A stretch of 64,000 nucleotides of DNA. Source: Bacteroidales bacterium (lineage in GTDB: Bacteria; Bacteroidota; Bacteroidia; Bacteroidales; UBA10428). Location of the stretch: NCBI GenBank assembly GCA_016929525.1, contig JAFGIP010000008.1, positions 34,749 through 98,748 on the forward strand, written 5' to 3'. This document shows, one piece after another, positions 33,610 through 42,088 of the stretch. Position numbers and translations under genes: made by a program. The notes beneath the pieces were generated by a model, which did not search any database, was not told the DNA's origin, and saw only the letters and a list, made by a program, of their open reading frames with translations. Each line of letters begins with the position of its first letter. The first letter of the stretch is position 1.

Positions 33610-35877
33610 TTATAAAACATCATTTTGTTTACGTATCAGGTTTAAAGCAGACCCGGCTTTAAACCATTCAATCTGGTTCTCATTATATGAATGCGAAACC
33701 TCAATTTCATCATCTGAACCATCGGAATGACGTAAGGTTACTATCAGGTTTTTACCCGCTGTAAATTCCTTTAGTCCTTTTATATCTATGATGTCGTCTT
33801 CCCTGATCTTATTGTAATCTTCTTTATCTGCGAAAGTCAAAGCAAGCATACCCTGTTTTTTTAAGTTTGTTTCGTGTATTCTGGCAAATGATTTAACAAT
33901 AACCGCTTTCACTCCCAAATGTCTTGGTTCCATAGCAGCATGCTCCCGGGAAGAACCTTCTCCGTAATTTTCATCACCTGCCACTATAGTACCAATACCC
34001 TGTTTCTTATAATTACGCGCTGCAGCCGGCACTTCACCATAGATGCCAGTAGTAAGGTCCTTAACTGAATTTGTTTTATCATTAAAAAAATTTACTGCTC
34101 CTATTAACAGGTTATTCGAAATATTGTCCAGATGTCCTCTGTATCTCAGCCAAGGTCCAGCCATGGAAATATGATCGGTCGTGCACTTACCCTTTGCTTT
34201 TATTAAAAGTCTTAAGCCATTAAAATCTTTTCCATCCCAGGATTCAAAAGGAGTGAGAATTTGTAAACGTTCAGAGTTAGGATTTACCACTACCTCTATT
34301 TTCTTACCATCACTTGCCGGTTCCTGAAATCCTGCATCCCCTACCGAGAAACCTTTTACCGGCATTTCCATTCCTTTAGGTTCTTCAAGCTTAACCTGTT
34401 TACCATCTATATTAGTTAGTGTGTCTGTTACAGGATTAAAAGTGAGATCGCCTGCAATGGCAAATGCTGTTGTTAGCTCAGGAGATGCAACGAAAGCGTG
34501 AGTATTTGGATTTCCATCGTTACGCTTGGCAAAATTCCTGTTAAAGGATGTCATGATTGAATTCTTCTCATGTTTATCGGCACCATACCTTGCCCATTGT
34601 CCAATACAAGGGCCGCAAGCATTTGCCAGAACAACTCCTCCCATTTTTTCAAATTTTTCCAACAAGCCATCCCTTTCGGCGGTAAATCTTACCTGCTCCG
34701 AACCAGGAGTAACCGTATATTCCGATACAACTTTTAATTTTTTTGAAATGGCCTGATCGGCAATAGATGCTGCTCGTGTAAGGTCTTCATACGATGAATT
34801 AGTACAAGATCCGATTAATCCAACTTCAAGTTTTTCAGGCCATCCGTTCTTTTTTACTTCGCCGGCAAATTTAGATAACGGAGTAGCCCGATCCGGTGTA
34901 AACGGTCCATTGATGTGTGGTTCCAGTTCAGATAAATTGATTTCAATAATCTGATCGAAATATTTCTCCGGTGATTCATAAACTTCTTTATCACCTGTTA
35001 ATTCTTCTGCAATCTCATTTGCCTTATCAGCGACTTCTTTTCTACCGGTACCTCTCAGGTATTCTTCCATTTTATTATCATAACCAAATAATGAAGTTGT
35101 AGCACCAATCTCGGCCCCCATATTACAAATTGTACCTTTCCCGGTGGCCGATATTGAATGAGCCCCATTACCAAAATATTCAACAATATAACCAGTACCA
35201 CCTTTCACTGTAAGAATTCCGGCTACTTTTAGTATCACATCTTTTGCTGAAGTCCAACCACTTAATTTTCCTGTAAGTTTAACACCAATTAATTTTGGGA
35301 ATTTCAATTCCCAGGGCATACCTGTCATCACATCAACAGCATCGGCGCCGCCAACACCAATCGCAACCATACCCAACCCTCCGGCATTTACAGTGTGTGA
35401 GTCAGTACCAATCATCATTCCTCCGGGAAAAGCATAATTTTCCAGAACAACCTGGTGAATAATACCTGCGCCTGGTTTCCAGAAACCAATACCATATTTG
35501 TTGGATACTGAACTAAGGAAATCGTATACTTCTTTATTGTTATTACCGGCAATTGAAAGATCCTGCTTAGCACCCAGTTTTGCCTGGATCAAATGATCAC
35601 AGTGCACTGTAGATGGAACAGCTGTTCTTTTCTTTCCACCCTGCATAAATTGTAACAATGCCATCTGGGCTGTGGCATCCTGCATCGCGACTCTGTCCGG
35701 CTTAAAATTTACATAATCGACACCTCTTTTATAGGCTTCTTTGGCAGGTGTATCTAAATGCGAATACAATATCTTTTCTGTAAGTGTTAGTGGCTTTTTT
35801 GTAATCTCTCTGGCATAATTTACCTTCTGCAGGTATTCTGTGTATACTATTTTAATCATATCAATATCGAAAACCAT
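33610..35877 (-). CDS. acnA: Aconitate hydratase (mitochondrial-type)
   Basis: [51 protein letters not shown]. Confidence 0.96.
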
Positions 35878-36123: not shown

Positions 36124-36501
36124 ATGAAAAAGTTAGTAATAGAAAAAAAAGCAAACACCCCGTCAGTAAACTTTGATCAGCAGACTGGTTTGTTAAAAAT
36201 AGAAGGACGATCTATTCCGGAGAATCCAGGTGAATTTTATGATGAACTTATTGACTGGGTAAAAGAATATTTTAATCACCCACAGGAAAAAACGATTTTT
36301 GAGCTCAACCTTGAATATGTAAACAGTGGTTCTTCAAAGCACCTGCTGGGTATTTTCAGGGTAATTAAAGATCAGATTCAAAAGGGAAGAGATATAACAG
36401 TAAACTGGTTTTATGAAGAAGATGATGAAGCAATTTTAAATCTAGGAGAACATTATAAATCGTCGTTAAAAATACCATTCAATCTTATTGAATTTATATA
36501 A
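36124..36501 (+). CDS. SiaC family (DUF1987) regulatory phosphoprotein
   Basis: TPSVNFD..G.L.IEGRSIPEN...FY, LEYVNSGSSK, VNWFYEEDDE...LGE.Y. Confidence 0.85.
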   Translation: MKKLVIEKKANTPSVNFDQQTGLLKIEGRSIPENPGEFYDELIDWVKEYFNHPQEKTIFELNLEYVNSGSSKHLLGIFRVIKDQIQKGRDITVNWFYEEDDEAILNLGEHYKSSLKIPFNLIEFI

Positions 36502-36553
36502 ACAACTATTAGGCATTATTCTCTTCCTAGTGTATTTTTCAAGAGAATAAAAG

Positions 36554-36582
36554 AAAAGCCATCCGTAAACGGATGGCTTTTT
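36554..36582. terminator. Bidirectional intrinsic terminator
   Basis: AAAAGCCATCCG-TAAA-CGGATGGCTTTT between convergent siaC-like and gap genes. Confidence 0.85.
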
Positions 36583-37624: not shown

Positions 37625-37802
37625 TTATTGCTTATTATTAAATTTAATTCTTCCTGAAAAATGAAGTGCGAAGATATTAAAATATATCAAAATCAACAAG
37701 GTGTAATTAAGATGGAGGTTATTATTGTGAAAGGGATAACAGGATACTTACGATAATCTTCACTCTAAGCAATGTTTATTTTAAATAAATAAACATCTTC
37801 AT

Positions 37803-38597
37803 TTAATCCGTAAGCATCTCATCAACTTTTGTTTTACGTCTTTTAAACTGTGAATCTATTATTTTCCCAAAACGATAGTTTAAAAAAAATCCGGGAAATA
37901 ACCAGTGATTTTGGTCATTGGCCATTATTGGAATTTCCTTAACGAATGCATCGACAATTATACCCGTTTCAAGGGCCCTATAAGTCCCGCCTTTTTTGCT
38001 GTACTCAAATGAAAAACCAAATTTAAAATACCCCCCTGGGACAACTGATAACTCATTGAATCCAATGTAAAAGGGAGCTTTTCTGTCTATCAACAGATGA
38101 TCTTCAAATTTCATCCTTTCGATCTGGAAAACCGGTTGATCTCCAATATACCCTTGTAAAACCCACACCTCATAATATACAGGTTTTTGTAAACCAATGA
38201 CAGGCCCAAAATTATAGAAGTAACGAATTGATATACCACCTTGATCTTCTTTTCTGAAAATCTCACGTTGAAAGCCAATACCACCATATAATGTATAAAG
38301 GGAATTCAGCTTGCCATAAACATAACTACCACCAATCTGTTGCGTTTGGGAAGTTGTTATTTTAAATTCCTTCTCATGTTTCATGAAATTAAATCCGGCC
38401 TCGTATGTAGTTTTACGAAAAGCATCGAGACGCTTTGCATAACGAAAATTAAATCCAAAGCCTGTTGAAGCTATGGTTCCTGCAAAAGTACGTTCGTTAC
38501 GATAAAAGATTTTTTCTTCATCATCAATTTCTCCCTGTGCTTTTAGTATTGCAAAAGTCACAGACATCAAACATAGTATAGCCCATATCTTTTTCAT
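37803..38597 (-). CDS. Hypothetical outer-membrane beta-barrel-like protein
   Basis: Signal peptide; alternating aromatic strands GFGFNFRY, YFKFGFSFEY, FFLNYRFG. Confidence 0.6.
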   Translation of the reverse strand: MKKIWAILCLMSVTFAILKAQGEIDDEEKIFYRNERTFAGTIASTGFGFNFRYAKRLDAFRKTTYEAGFNFMKHEKEFKITTSQTQQIGGSYVYGKLNSLYTLYGGIGFQREIFRKEDQGGISIRYFYNFGPVIGLQKPVYYEVWVLQGYIGDQPVFQIERMKFEDHLLIDRKAPFYIGFNELSVVPGGYFKFGFSFEYSKKGGTYRALETGIIVDAFVKEIPIMANDQNHWLFPGFFLNYRFGKIIDSQFKRRKTKVDEMLTD

Positions 38598-38672
38598 ACG
38601 ATACCGGCTAAATTAAAACAAACTGAGTATTATTCCAGAGGATATATCCGGAAAAATGACCGAACTTATTGC

Positions 38673-38804
38673 TTAACTTCTTAAATCTTCCTGCTGTTCA
38701 TGTGAAGCATTACCATATGCAGGACAGTTTTTTGAAGCACTACAAGAGGTAACTATTAGTCCAAGTAATAAACAGACAGCAAGAATAATAGCCTTAATTT
38801 TCAT
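38673..38804 (-). CDS. 43-aa lipoprotein with CPAY motif (not in ORF track)
   Basis: MKIKAIILAVCLLLGLIVTS-CSASKNCPAYGNASHEQQEDLRS*; basic N-region, hydrophobic core, lipobox. Confidence 0.8.
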   Translation of the reverse strand: MKIKAIILAVCLLLGLIVTSCSASKNCPAYGNASHEQQEDLRS

Positions 38805-38864
38805 AATATTATTTTGAATGAGACATGTAATTACAGAGAGCATGAATAATTAAAACCAAAACTC

Positions 38865-38999
38865 TTAGCTCCTCTCAACATCGCCAGCTTGTTCTGATGA
38901 GTTATCTTCTGAATATGCAGGACAAATGTAATTACTACATGCCATTGCAAACATGGCCAATAATAATATTGCAGAAATAAATTTTACAACTCTTTTCAT
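38865..38999 (-). CDS. 44-aa lipoprotein with CPAY motif (not in ORF track)
   Basis: MKRVVKFISAILLLAMFAMA-CSNYICPAYSEDNSSEQAGDVERS*; same layout as the adjacent ORF. Confidence 0.8.
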   Translation of the reverse strand: MKRVVKFISAILLLAMFAMACSNYICPAYSEDNSSEQAGDVERS

Positions 39000-39248: not shown

Positions 39249-39998
39249 ATGATTGAAACAATATATCAGCATCGTTCAATTCGTAAATTTTCAAACCAGC
39301 CGGTCAGTTCGGATATATTGAAGAAAATCTTACATGCAGGTACACGTGCCTCTACCACAGGTAATATGCAGGTATATAGTTTGATTGTAACTATTCAGAA
39401 TGAACTTAAAAGAAAACTTTGGGAAGCTCACTTCAGGCAGGATATGGTTTTAGAGGCTCCCATCATCATTACTTTCTGTGCCGATTATAATCGATTTGTT
39501 AAATGGTGCAAGCAGCGTAAAGCGAACCCCGGATACGATAATTTTCTTTCTTTCTTTACAGGTGCAATTGATGCATTATTGGCAGCTCAGAATGTCGCAC
39601 TTGCTGCAGAATCATTCAGTCTTGGGATTTGCTATCTCGGTACAACAACTTATATGGCGGAAAAAATTATCGACATACTTGATTTACCAAAACTAGTTGT
39701 ACCTGTTACCAGCCTTGTAATAGGTCATCCAAATGAGTCTCCTGGATTAACAGATCGACTTCCAACGGAAGGTATAATTCACTATGAAAAATATTCAGAT
39801 TATAATGCTGAAGATATTGACAGGATATACGCCGACAAAGAACAATTGGAGCTAACAGCGGAATTATTAAAAGAAAATAACAAAGAAACTTTGGCGCAGG
39901 TATTTACTGATAATCGTTATACAAAAAAAGACAATATTTACTTCTCGAAGGAACTATTGAAAGTTCTTAACAAACAAGGATTTATGAATAATGAGTAG
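39249..39998 (+). CDS. NfsA/NfrA-like nitroreductase (flavin oxidoreductase)
   Basis: HRSIRKF, ASTTGNMQ.YS, DALLAAQN, LGICYLG, DRLP. Confidence 0.9.
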   Translation: MIETIYQHRSIRKFSNQPVSSDILKKILHAGTRASTTGNMQVYSLIVTIQNELKRKLWEAHFRQDMVLEAPIIITFCADYNRFVKWCKQRKANPGYDNFLSFFTGAIDALLAAQNVALAAESFSLGICYLGTTTYMAEKIIDILDLPKLVVPVTSLVIGHPNESPGLTDRLPTEGIIHYEKYSDYNAEDIDRIYADKEQLELTAELLKENNKETLAQVFTDNRYTKKDNIYFSKELLKVLNKQGFMNNE

Positions 39999-40077: not shown

Positions 40078-41154
40078 TTATTTTATCTCGAAGTCAATCT
40101 GCAATTTATATGCTATCTCCTTAAGATCTCTTGCAATATTTGGAATTATGCTGATGCCTTCTTTCGATATTTGTTCTTCTTTTTCACGTTCGATATCACC
40201 CGGAATTTTAACGGCTGGGTTACCCGGGGCACTTTCAGCATTTCTGAATGTTGTAATCCACTCGTCCATTTTTCTCTTAAATTCAGCTGCCGGTTGAAAT
40301 GCATCAATACGCATTGCTCCGAAGAAATGGCCGGTCCCCTCTCCGACCTTTTCCTCTAGAACGGGAAGATATGCTACCGACGGCGGCACAAAAGGACCGA
40401 AGTTAGCTCCGGAGAGCACTGCACTAAAAATATCAACAATGGTGCTTAAGCAATAACCCTTATGACTTCCATGCGCATAATCACCTCCAAGGGTAAGCAT
40501 TGAACCTCCTTCTTTTAAAATTGAAGGCTCATCACTGGGATTACCATTCTTGTCCTGTACATATCCCAATAATGTTTTTTCACCATTTTTTTCTGCCACA
40601 GCCAGTTTACCTCTTGCAATCGGTGTAGTAGCAAAATCAGCAACAAAGGGTGGTTGTTTATCAGCGGGAATTGCAACAGCAATTGGATTTGTTCCCAGTA
40701 ATCTGCTTACTGAAAAGGTCGGAGCCACAAGAGGATTTGCATTGGTCATTGACATACCAATCATATCATGTTCAAGAGCCATCATCGCATAATAACCGGC
40801 AATACCATAATGATTTGATCCACGAACCGACACCCATCCTGTTCCTGATTTTTCTGCCTTTTCAATAGCGATCTCCATAGCTCTTGTAGCTGCGATCATC
40901 CCAATAGCCCCGTCACCATCAACAACAGCGGTACTGGGCGATTCATGTACAATGCGAATATCCGGTGATGTATTAATTCTTCGGGCTTCCCAAAGCTGAA
41001 AATAATCTTTAATTCTGATCATCCCATGTGATGCAAGCCCTCTTAACTCTGCTGCAAGGAATACTTTCGATGCCATGGACGCATGTTCATCGCTGCATCC
41101 CATTTTGACAAATATCTTTTTTGTAAAATCAAACAGATAATTATATGAATACAT
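40078..41154 (-). CDS. Ldh_2 family oxidoreductase (type 2 malate/L-lactate dehydrogenase family)
   Basis: LRG..SHG..R, SNHYGIAG, LGTNPIA, HKGY.L, V.IPGD.E. Confidence 0.9.
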   Translation of the reverse strand: MYSYNYLFDFTKKIFVKMGCSDEHASMASKVFLAAELRGLASHGMIRIKDYFQLWEARRINTSPDIRIVHESPSTAVVDGDGAIGMIAATRAMEIAIEKAEKSGTGWVSVRGSNHYGIAGYYAMMALEHDMIGMSMTNANPLVAPTFSVSRLLGTNPIAVAIPADKQPPFVADFATTPIARGKLAVAEKNGEKTLLGYVQDKNGNPSDEPSILKEGGSMLTLGGDYAHGSHKGYCLSTIVDIFSAVLSGANFGPFVPPSVAYLPVLEEKVGEGTGHFFGAMRIDAFQPAAEFKRKMDEWITTFRNAESAPGNPAVKIPGDIEREKEEQISKEGISIIPNIARDLKEIAYKLQIDFEIK

Positions 41155-41338: not shown

Positions 41339-42088
41339 TTGAAAAAAAGACACATTTTATTACTCCCGCTTATTGTGGTACAGTTGTTCTGCTTTAGTCA
41401 GAAACCTAAAGTAATGAATGATCCCACCCATGATGACAGGCCAATACATTTTGGATTTTCGGTTGGTGTCAATTTTATGGATTACAGAATTGAACACTCT
41501 GAAGCCGCAGATAACGCAGGAGTTTTTATAGGTCTGGAAGAAGTTTTACCCGGATTCACTGTTAACGCAATAGTTAACCTCAGAATAACGGAAAATTTTG
41601 ACTTTCGCACATTGCCGGGCATTTCATTTGGTGAAAGACATCTGTATTATATTGACAGCAGCGGATATGGAAATTCAATCTATCCCGAGCCCGGATCGGG
41701 CAGAACATCTTATTATAAATCCCCTTCATCATATATTGAAATTCCCGTTTGCTTAAAATATAAGGCAAAAAGATTAAATAATTTCAGACCCTATCTTATT
41801 GGTGGCGCTAATTTCAGATGGGATCTGACTATTAAAGATTCCTACGATGATGAGGATCAATTGATCATGACAGACGTGTTTAATGCTTTTGGCGAAGTTG
41901 GTACAGGAATGGATTTCTATATGACCTATTTCAAATTAGGGATTGAGATAAAATACTCTTTTGGCCTGTGGAATATTTTAAACAGAACGAACAGCAAAGG
42001 AGAGATCGACGAAGAACTTGCCCATTTTACCGATTACATAGATAAAATTACCGCACACATGGTAGTTGTTTCATTCCATTTTGAATAA
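41339..42088 (+). CDS. porT: Type IX secretion system outer membrane protein PorT/SprT
   Basis: D.RPIHFGF.VG.N, R.LPG.SF.ER, Y.EIP..LKY.AKRLNN.RPY, G.G.DFY..YFK; terminal HFE; next to trmH-tamL. Confidence 0.85.
   Translation: MKKRHILLLPLIVVQLFCFSQKPKVMNDPTHDDRPIHFGFSVGVNFMDYRIEHSEAADNAGVFIGLEEVLPGFTVNAIVNLRITENFDFRTLPGISFGERHLYYIDSSGYGNSIYPEPGSGRTSYYKSPSSYIEIPVCLKYKAKRLNNFRPYLIGGANFRWDLTIKDSYDDEDQLIMTDVFNAFGEVGTGMDFYMTYFKLGIEIKYSFGLWNILNRTNSKGEIDEELAHFTDYIDKITAHMVVVSFHFE

Follow-up and report, generated by a model that had tools for sequence, protein, structure and literature searches.

The 64,000-nucleotide window analysed here (positions 34,749 to 98,748 of contig JAFGIP010000008.1, GenBank assembly GCA_016929525.1, from a Bacteroidales bacterium of the UBA10428 lineage) contains two tandem genes for micro-lipoproteins, pepA and pepB, directly upstream of the gene for a 264-aa outer-membrane β-barrel. 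The peptides, with their C-P-A-Y motif, and the barrel form a real and undescribed gene pair that extends across the class. [quoted passage not shown]

The micro-lipoprotein genes

The pepA gene (38865-38999, minus strand) is an open reading frame (ORF) for a lipoprotein precursor of 44 aa with a predicted mature form of 24 aa (MKRVV...AMFAMAC-SNYI-CPAY-SEDNSSEQAGDVERS), in which a spacer of four residues precedes the motif and an acidic tail follows it. The pepB ORF (38673-38804, minus strand) encodes a precursor of 43 aa from its MKIK start, and the open frame extends to another upstream ATG at 38843. Its predicted mature form of 23 aa (...LIVTSC-SASKN-CPAY-GNASHEQQEDLRS) has a spacer of five, the class-wide type, and continues as CPAY-GNAS before the acidic tail. 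Inspection of the two precursors (pepA, MKRVVK...LLLAMFAMA-C; pepB, MKIK...LGLIVTS-C) found in both the Lys/Arg-rich start, hydrophobic core and lipobox of a lipoprotein signal, and the conserved Cys sits 5-6 residues past the lipobox Cys. The barrel gene (37803-38597) lies on the same minus strand; the intergenic gaps are 60 nt between pepA and pepB, 75 nt between pepB and the barrel gene, and 190 nt between the barrel gene and the downstream GAPDH gene. The sequence-only reading had described two small ORFs with lipoprotein signals, mature peptides of 23-24 aa and an identical CPAY, co-oriented 75 nt upstream of a 264-aa secreted protein with no mature Cys. All of these coordinates and sequences were confirmed; the only Cys of the barrel is residue 9, inside the signal peptide.

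The genome of this organism (4.06 Mb, 122 contigs, 36% GC) contains CPAY 28 times in its six-frame translation, against 15.6 expected from composition, and the genome-wide expectation for C-x(4-5)-CPAY is about 0.9. When the pattern was relaxed to C-x(2-12)-C-x-[AG]-[YFW] preceded by a Met and a hydrophobic stretch, the scan gave 10 rows (9 distinct ORFs), and among these only pepA and pepB combine CPAY with a Lys/Arg-rich start and a lipobox before it. A pair of such ORFs separated by 60 nt is not a product of chance. With profile A1 the two peptides scored E 8e-18 (pepA) and 1.3e-16 (pepB) in their own genome. Profile scans placed neither in a Pfam or NCBIfam family above cut-off; at E<=1 the Pfam scan returned DUF4969 alone (E 0.03-0.09, under its cut-off). 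The public protein records of the relatives are named 'hypothetical protein'. No publication on these peptides or on the barrel family was found in the literature searched, of which the PorG/SprF tail alignments published in figures and supplements were not seen.

Conservation and range of the peptide family

With the single barrel protein as query, orthologues were found in 33 of 41 related genomes including its own (22/24 in the genus, 10/16 in other families of the order). Of the 29 barrel loci outside the own genome, 27 have a lipobox-CPAY ORF, or two of them, immediately upstream in the same orientation; the other two are truncated contigs. Met1, the lipobox Cys and CPAY are kept in 41/41 peptide ORFs beside barrel orthologues, and the codons of the motif are variable: Cys is TGT in 31 and TGC in 10; Pro is CCT (22), CCG (17), CCC (1) or CCA (1); Ala is GCA (16), GCT (16), GCC (7) or GCG (2); and Tyr is TAT (29) or TAC (12). 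Because each of the four codons changes at synonymous sites and CPAY itself does not, selection acts on the peptide and not on the DNA or RNA. The same pattern was also seen in 107 unique Bacteroidales peptides. Judging from this conservation, pepA and pepB are genuine translated micro-lipoprotein genes under strong purifying selection at CPAY.

Scanning one genome per species gave 116 barrel relatives, from which 80 loci were retained. These are all from uncultured Bacteroidales or Bacteroidota metagenome-assembled genomes (MAGs), plus one Draconibacterium MAG, and they partly overlap the 41 related genomes, so the two counts are not independent. An upstream peptide is present at 77/80 loci, in two copies at 32 and in one copy at 45, with a median peptide-barrel gap of 97 nt; two of the three loci without a peptide have less than 300 nt of upstream sequence. 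The motifs comprise 106 CPAY, 2 CPTY and 1 CPVY. The 107 unique peptides have mature lengths of 20-27 residues (mode 21), apart from one with 33 and another with 43, and the inter-Cys spacer is 4 (59 peptides), 5 (25), 6 (10), 7 (4) or 8 (9). Past CPAY the sequence continues in a semi-conserved manner as [SAG]-[KQD]-[ANV]-[DS]-[TV]-E. The commonest lipobox (-3 to +1) is LSSC, followed by FSSC, SFSC, SVSC, ISSC and LGSC.

The class was sampled with 60 genomes, about one per family, and separate PorG, peptide and barrel searches were made on the same draw; a peptide match was counted if it had E<=1e-4, covered the motif and lay in a small frame. The peptide was found in 43 genomes, the barrel (single copy) in 52, and both in 41; in 28 of these the two share a strand and are no more than 3 kb apart. 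Inspection of the barrel's upstream DNA in the 11 genomes with a barrel only revealed divergent peptides in three (...CGHRKQACAAYDR; ...CKGSCPKFSIDW; ...CKSTCPKF followed by the stop), which revises the co-occurrence to 44 genomes with both, 8 with the barrel only, 2 with the peptide only and 6 with neither. The minimal variants among them lie upstream of the barrel at about nt 2018 of L259 (G347) and at nt 1898 of L260 (G390); one has a mature part of eight residues, CKSTCPKF, with the stop right after the motif, and the other reads CKGSCPKFSIDW... The conservation of ORF and motif that the sequence-only reading had proposed as a check therefore holds in relatives (41/41) and across the class (44/60), and so does the linkage to the barrel gene (27/29, 77/80 and 28/41 in the three samples). 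Its suggestion of an operon was borne out in part. The same-strand tandem layout is present in this order; however, in 10 of the 12 class-level gaps examined, peptide and barrel are separated by an OsmC-like gene on the opposite strand. This conserved gene, of about 140 aa, occupies the gap in L095, L096, L099, L103, L104, L107, L113, L120, L044 and L045 (PF02566 confirmed it for L095). Because this gene separates the two in most other families, the operon layout is specific to this order.

The class consensus of the mature peptide is C-K-[ST]-H-E-[RK]-C-P-A-Y-[GST]-K with a basic tail. Orthologues of the pepA type occur upstream of the barrel in relatives, and those of the pepB type in relatives and class-wide. 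The pepB type (spacer of 5) is the ancestral one, and pepA, whose spacer is 4, has the look of a duplicate specific to the lineage. In 301 genomes drawn across the phylum, motif-covering matches were seen in genomes of the same class or the same order only (about 17); most of the remaining matches cover the signal peptide only, and two weak, putative motif-only matches were found in same-phylum genomes (G313 and G239, E 0.006-0.008).

A profile search among 5.8 billion proteins returned 433 peptide clusters (90% identity, 22-83 aa, E<=1e-3). Among the 120 clusters listed there is no Pfam domain, and those with names are 'hypothetical', except for two evidently automatic names, LpoB and BamE. 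CPAY is matched directly in 117 of these 120; in the other three the pattern caught an earlier CNNY. A search for longer forms gave weak evidence, with one 88-aa protein among 8000 scored candidates. A lipoprotein of 216 aa in G210 (L042, 1477-2124, plus strand) starts with the peptide module (...SCSQKKICPAYQSS, ...AVSCSQKKICPAYQSS...) and falls into no Pfam or NCBIfam family above cut-off; possibly it is the peptide in a fused or extended form. Taken by its sequence distribution, the peptide family is Bacteroidia-wide and genetically coupled to a mostly Cys-free barrel family of about ten strands.

The outer-membrane barrel family

The 264-aa barrel has a signal peptide, about ten strands, a conserved KH-x-KE loop and a C-terminal helix. 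The AlphaFold2 model built from 24 orthologues (mean pLDDT 84.3) contains ten long strands, in agreement with the β-strand-rich protein that the sequence-only reading had predicted, and the conserved KH-x-KE and PIMA motifs lie in its long loops, on one face. The C-terminal helix is specific to this order; outside the order the protein ends in ...FGKKWF, a classic β-signal. A wide fold search with VIA-align gave Z 15-16.6 to generic small outer-membrane barrels, and Foldseek against pdb reached TMq <= 0.44. The matches are OmpA, OmpX, Ail, NspA, OmpW, PagL and a Legionella porin, and neither method pointed to a closer fold or to a specific function.

An exhaustive profile search of 1.84 billion representatives placed 1583 clusters (50% identity, E<=1e-3) in the barrel family, 1305 of them at E<=1e-10 and 795 at E<=1e-30; the best 150 of the 1583 are mostly 240-290 aa long. 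The barrel and five distant homologues have no Pfam or NCBIfam match, and its clusters in the ESM Atlas are all 'hypothetical'. There is no Cys after residue 25 in 30 of 41 aligned barrels.

Both the barrel and PorG are small outer-membrane barrels of Bacteroidota with a similar last strand (NHWLFPGFFLNYRFGK vs NDWYSFFGIFITYKF). The barrel differs in that it has no tail Cys, about ten strands instead of eight, and no Pfam or NCBIfam match. A derivation from PorG/DUF6089 by loss of the tail was considered and left as unproven: hhalign against a 25-sequence PorG alignment matched 14 columns, in the last strand only, at 17.6% probability, and the barrel has no match to PF19573 or NF052316 and no Cys after the signal peptide.

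[quoted passage not shown]

A third secreted CPAY of this genome lies on another contig, at the extreme C-terminus of a 211-aa outer-membrane barrel (...FITYKFVKFAADCPAYN). This protein is the DUF6089/T9SS PorG (PF19573, E 9.8e-27; NF052316, 173 bits with a cut-off of 130), and it ends in ...KFAADCPAYN. The tail Cys is invariant in 25/25 aligned PorG proteins of the class, after the last strand; 23 of these tails have a single Cys, 12 contain C-[PYAD]-x-[YF], and 5 contain CPAY. PorG tails of the genus read FKFAxDC-P-[AVT]-Y in 18/18, whereas those of other families of the order include QCPAYGNAKS, CPAYDGK, CPAYHK, CPAYLNY, CPAFKG and CPAYARRH. The resemblance to the peptides (CPAYGNAS, CPAYGK) thus extends past the four residues of the motif.

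Among the 13 PorP/SprF paralogues of the genome, five have a single Cys in the C-terminal tail (contigs C115, C37, C69, C11 and C86). Four of these tails are of the form C-P-x-hydrophobic (VPCPDL, VPCPEF, DCPTYDKSK and IKCPDI), and the fifth is IPCERY; this suggests that C-P-x-hydrophobic might be the general track-attachment motif of the lineage. The PorP/SprF copy on C11 adjoins a GldJ-like gene. Another copy, which has no tail Cys, lies directly upstream of GldK/PorK in the porP-porK order (C92:8276-10564, plus strand).

Two reports on Flavobacterium johnsoniae and Porphyromonas gingivalis describe the periplasmic C-tail Cys of SprF and PorG as disulfide-bonded to a single exposed Cys of the track/ring lipoprotein GldK (Cys343) or PorK (Cys356), a bond required for gliding and type IX secretion (Liu et al. 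2025, PMC12635249; Nat Commun 2025;16:7735, PMC12365241). PorK Cys356 is described there as exposed in an R-G-C-F loop on the membrane-facing side; AF3 contacts are confined to the residues around the disulfide, and a gap of about 20 Å separates PorK from the membrane in the AF3 model (PMC12635249, PMC12365241). The twin-Cys 'donor disulfide' strategy cannot apply to a single-Cys PorG, and the route of its oxidation is left open there (PMC12635249). The GldK/PorK of the present genome (588 bits) carries ...NKEGC(323)FLANFKP, and this stretch aligns to the published reactive R-G-C-F-L-G-N-F-K-P loop of PorK Cys356 (PMC12365241, PMC12635249).

Proposed role and alternatives

The peptide would be exported, lipidated and cleaved at the lipobox Cys, leaving a lipopeptide of about 23 residues with a free Cys 5-6 residues from the anchor, within the invariant C-P-A-Y. 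An intermolecular disulfide formed by this free Cys is the favoured chemistry, in line with the sequence-only reading. Acidic residues after Cys+1 are a surface-export signal, and the absence of this signal is the sole ground on which the peptides are predicted to face the periplasm. Such a lipopeptide might be a membrane-anchored 'cysteine tail' supplied in trans, whose Cys would bond PorK or exchange disulfides there. The distance between thiol and membrane is similar in the two cases, with the lipid anchor plus 4-5 residues in the peptide and the last strand plus about 6-7 residues in PorG. The sequence context is likewise that of the PorG tail, and PorK Cys323 would be the prime candidate partner. 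The lipopeptide could then tie the Cys-less barrel to the PorKN/GldJKN track, the two together making up a PorG-like unit in two pieces; it could be a donor or resolving thiol for the single-Cys PorG/SprF tails; or it could cap the many PorK cysteines that are not occupied by PorG. That the lipopeptides are lipid-anchored Cys tails in trans which act at PorK, possibly for the Cys-free barrel, is the likeliest of the readings weighed here, plausible if tentative. That they are a new class of free track ligands which bond PorK/GldK, could supply the second Cys absent from single-Cys PorG/SprF tails and could harness the Cys-less barrel may also be proposed, as a possibility open to considerable doubt.

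Compared with known elements, the peptides share with the PorG/SprF tails a short unstructured stretch near an outer-membrane anchor, probably facing the periplasm, with one conserved Cys. Their CPAY is identical to that of the PorG tail of the same genome and close to its PorP/SprF tails CPTY, CPEF, CPDL and CPDI. They differ in that the anchor would be an N-terminal lipid on a peptide of 20-27 residues and not a β-barrel, in that they are coupled to a separate Cys-free barrel family, and in that they are missing from many T9SS-positive genomes, including the twin-Cys (C-x-C) lineages; for the peptides the bond to PorK is a proposed one.

The distribution of the pair is consistent with a role at the T9SS. 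All five tested genomes without GldK/PorG (G030, G475, G473, G660 and G352) also lack peptide and barrel, and one of them, G660, is 4.1 Mb in size and 99% complete. Both twin-Cys genomes checked, G025 (CKC) and G040 (CNPC), are also without peptide and barrel, as are the Flavobacterium-like G052 and G062 (tails ...CYCAE and ...CYCAF). With GldK found in 294 of the 301 class genomes sampled, the co-occurrence test has little power (n=5 negatives); this tally includes the unpublished genomes G589 and G525, on which no other figure rests.

Several observations weigh against an action of the lipopeptides at PorK. At 0.5-2.4 Mb, four of the five genomes without the T9SS are small, which makes general gene loss a confounding factor. 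The pair is missing from the PorG/GldK-positive genomes G025, G040, G071, G052, G062 and G371; with so many such genomes, the pair is not a core part of the T9SS and is dispensable for it. The CPAY of the class peptide is nearly invariant, whereas the tails of the best-hit PorG proteins vary (CYANY, CYAR, CVVPH, CDMPH, CSKM and others). Among the non-genus families of the order, 6 of the 9 peptide-carrying genomes and 0 of the 4 that lack the peptide have PorG tails of the form CP-x-[YF] (Fisher p=0.07, uncorrected for relatedness). An earlier count of 6/7 against 0/6 had fallen to this value once profile A4 detected peptides in G034 and G037, and a strict co-variation of the PorG tail motif with the presence of the peptide was rejected as weak. 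The frequent neighbours OsmC and BrxC are cytoplasmic redox genes and hint at another theme. Peptides occur without a barrel in G037, G057 and G364, and G282 has no barrel beside its peptide, the rest of that genome not having been searched for one. The peptide of G037 lies between Ldh_2 and GAPDH, as in the window minus the barrel. Because peptides persist without it, the peptide is not strictly a subunit of the barrel. We infer the lipidation, the topology, any disulfide and the partner.

By analogy with LptM, or with LptE and its partner LptD, the peptides might instead be accessory lipoproteins of the barrel with no link to the T9SS, docking on or in it for assembly, gating or plugging, with CPAY as the contact motif; this seems rather unlikely. 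The synteny and co-occurrence of peptide and barrel hold class-wide, as such a role would predict, and the variant CKSTCPKF suggests that an anchor-proximal core of eight residues suffices. LptM (YifL, PF13627) is also a very small lipoprotein, in which a short conserved motif follows immediately on the lipidated Cys and the tail is poorly conserved (PMC10567701). It partners an outer-membrane barrel, as the peptides do by gene linkage, and is tied to the disulfide maturation of this partner, LptD (Yang et al. 2023, PMC10567701). The same source reports LptM as essentially proteobacterial (PMC10567701). LptM differs from the peptides in having no conserved second Cys, a gene not adjacent to that of its partner, and a partner of 26 strands, compared with about ten here. 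The comparison with LptM, which the sequence-only reading had drawn, thus stands as an analogy of layout, whereas membership in the LptM family was rejected, as PF13627 has no match at E<=1 to either peptide. A disulfide to the barrel would not explain the invariant Cys of the peptide, since 30/41 barrels have no mature Cys; peptides also occur without a barrel, and the identity with the PorG/SprF tail motifs would have to be a coincidence. On their sequence features the peptides are most like the PorG/SprF Cys tails and formally like LptM, and they are members of neither.

It is quite unlikely that the peptides are periplasmic lipopeptides for thiol redox, heme binding or metal binding. Such a function would fit the oxidative-stress neighbours: in addition to the OsmC-like gene in 10/12 gaps, a gene for a BrxC-like monothiol bacilliredoxin follows the peptide in L036, L038, L052 and L098 (PF11009 confirmed it for L038 and L098 only). 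Cys-Pro is also a heme regulatory motif. However, both OsmC and BrxC are proteins of the cytoplasm, the OsmC gene lies on the opposite strand, and the association might be mere gene order; neither gene is beside the peptides in the window. This explanation also gives no role to the barrel and leaves the match to the PorG/SprF tails unexplained.

An action of the peptides mainly as disulfide-linked homo- or heterodimers (A-A, A-B or B-B), one of the roles proposed in the sequence-only reading along with metal binding and the plugging of a barrel, would be compatible with the other readings, and the tandem paralogues at 32/80 Bacteroidales loci, with a single free Cys in each peptide, agree with it; as the peptide is single-copy at 45/80 loci and in most class genomes, heterodimers cannot be the general function, and we regard dimers as the main form of action as very unlikely. 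Finally, that the ORFs are not functionally coding (chance ORFs, leader ORFs or an RNA element regulating the barrel gene) is hardly credible, for although they fall short of the usual gene-calling lengths and lack direct evidence of expression, their amino-acid motif stays invariant over synonymous codons, class-wide conservation extends to signal peptide, lipobox and stop position, an opposite-strand gene separates peptide and barrel in many families, and Rfam has no match.

Neighbouring genes and regulatory signals

A T9SS/gliding outer-membrane protein, PorT/SprT (NF052311, 194 bits), is encoded at 41339-42088 on the plus strand, 2.3 kb from pepA. The stretch between them carries genes for a nitroreductase (39249-39998) and an Ldh_2 dehydrogenase (40078-41154); the order Ldh_2-peptide-GAPDH is also found in G037 (L161). 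On the other side, a bidirectional terminator hairpin (36553-36582) closes the GAPDH gene, and just past it lies the gene for a SiaC-family regulatory phosphoprotein (36124-36501, plus strand; PF09345, E 3.5e-39).

From pepA to the GAPDH gene, the terminator scan found no terminator-like site in any intergenic gap; its sole match is a weak stem of six pairs (38043-38029) inside the barrel coding sequence. Immediately after the barrel stop codon there is an A/T-only inverted repeat (atgtttattt...aaataaacat, about 37770-37795, minus strand), which the G+C-based scan does not call. The scan for sigma-70-like promoters gave 16 sites, not above the 12.5 +/- 3.2 of the shuffled sequences. TAnnTTTG is a -7 promoter motif of Bacteroidetes, and it is present inside coding sequence only. 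Rfam has no match at E<=1 in the region. The only run listed as containing the stretch is a sediment-metagenome DNA run, possibly its source; two metatranscriptome runs from that study share next to none of its words, and no RNA dataset containing the stretch is listed.

Biological significance

The micro-lipoprotein, with at least 433 clusters at 90% identity, and the outer-membrane barrel, with 1583 clusters at 50% identity, are two large families that no database describes, and together they are a conserved gene pair in Bacteroidia. Their conservation also shows that some of the most conserved genes of the cell envelope can be ORFs too short for the usual gene-calling cut-offs. A class-wide lipopeptide of 20-27 residues that would hold C-P-A-Y near the membrane is a candidate for the oxidation of single-Cys PorG onto PorK.

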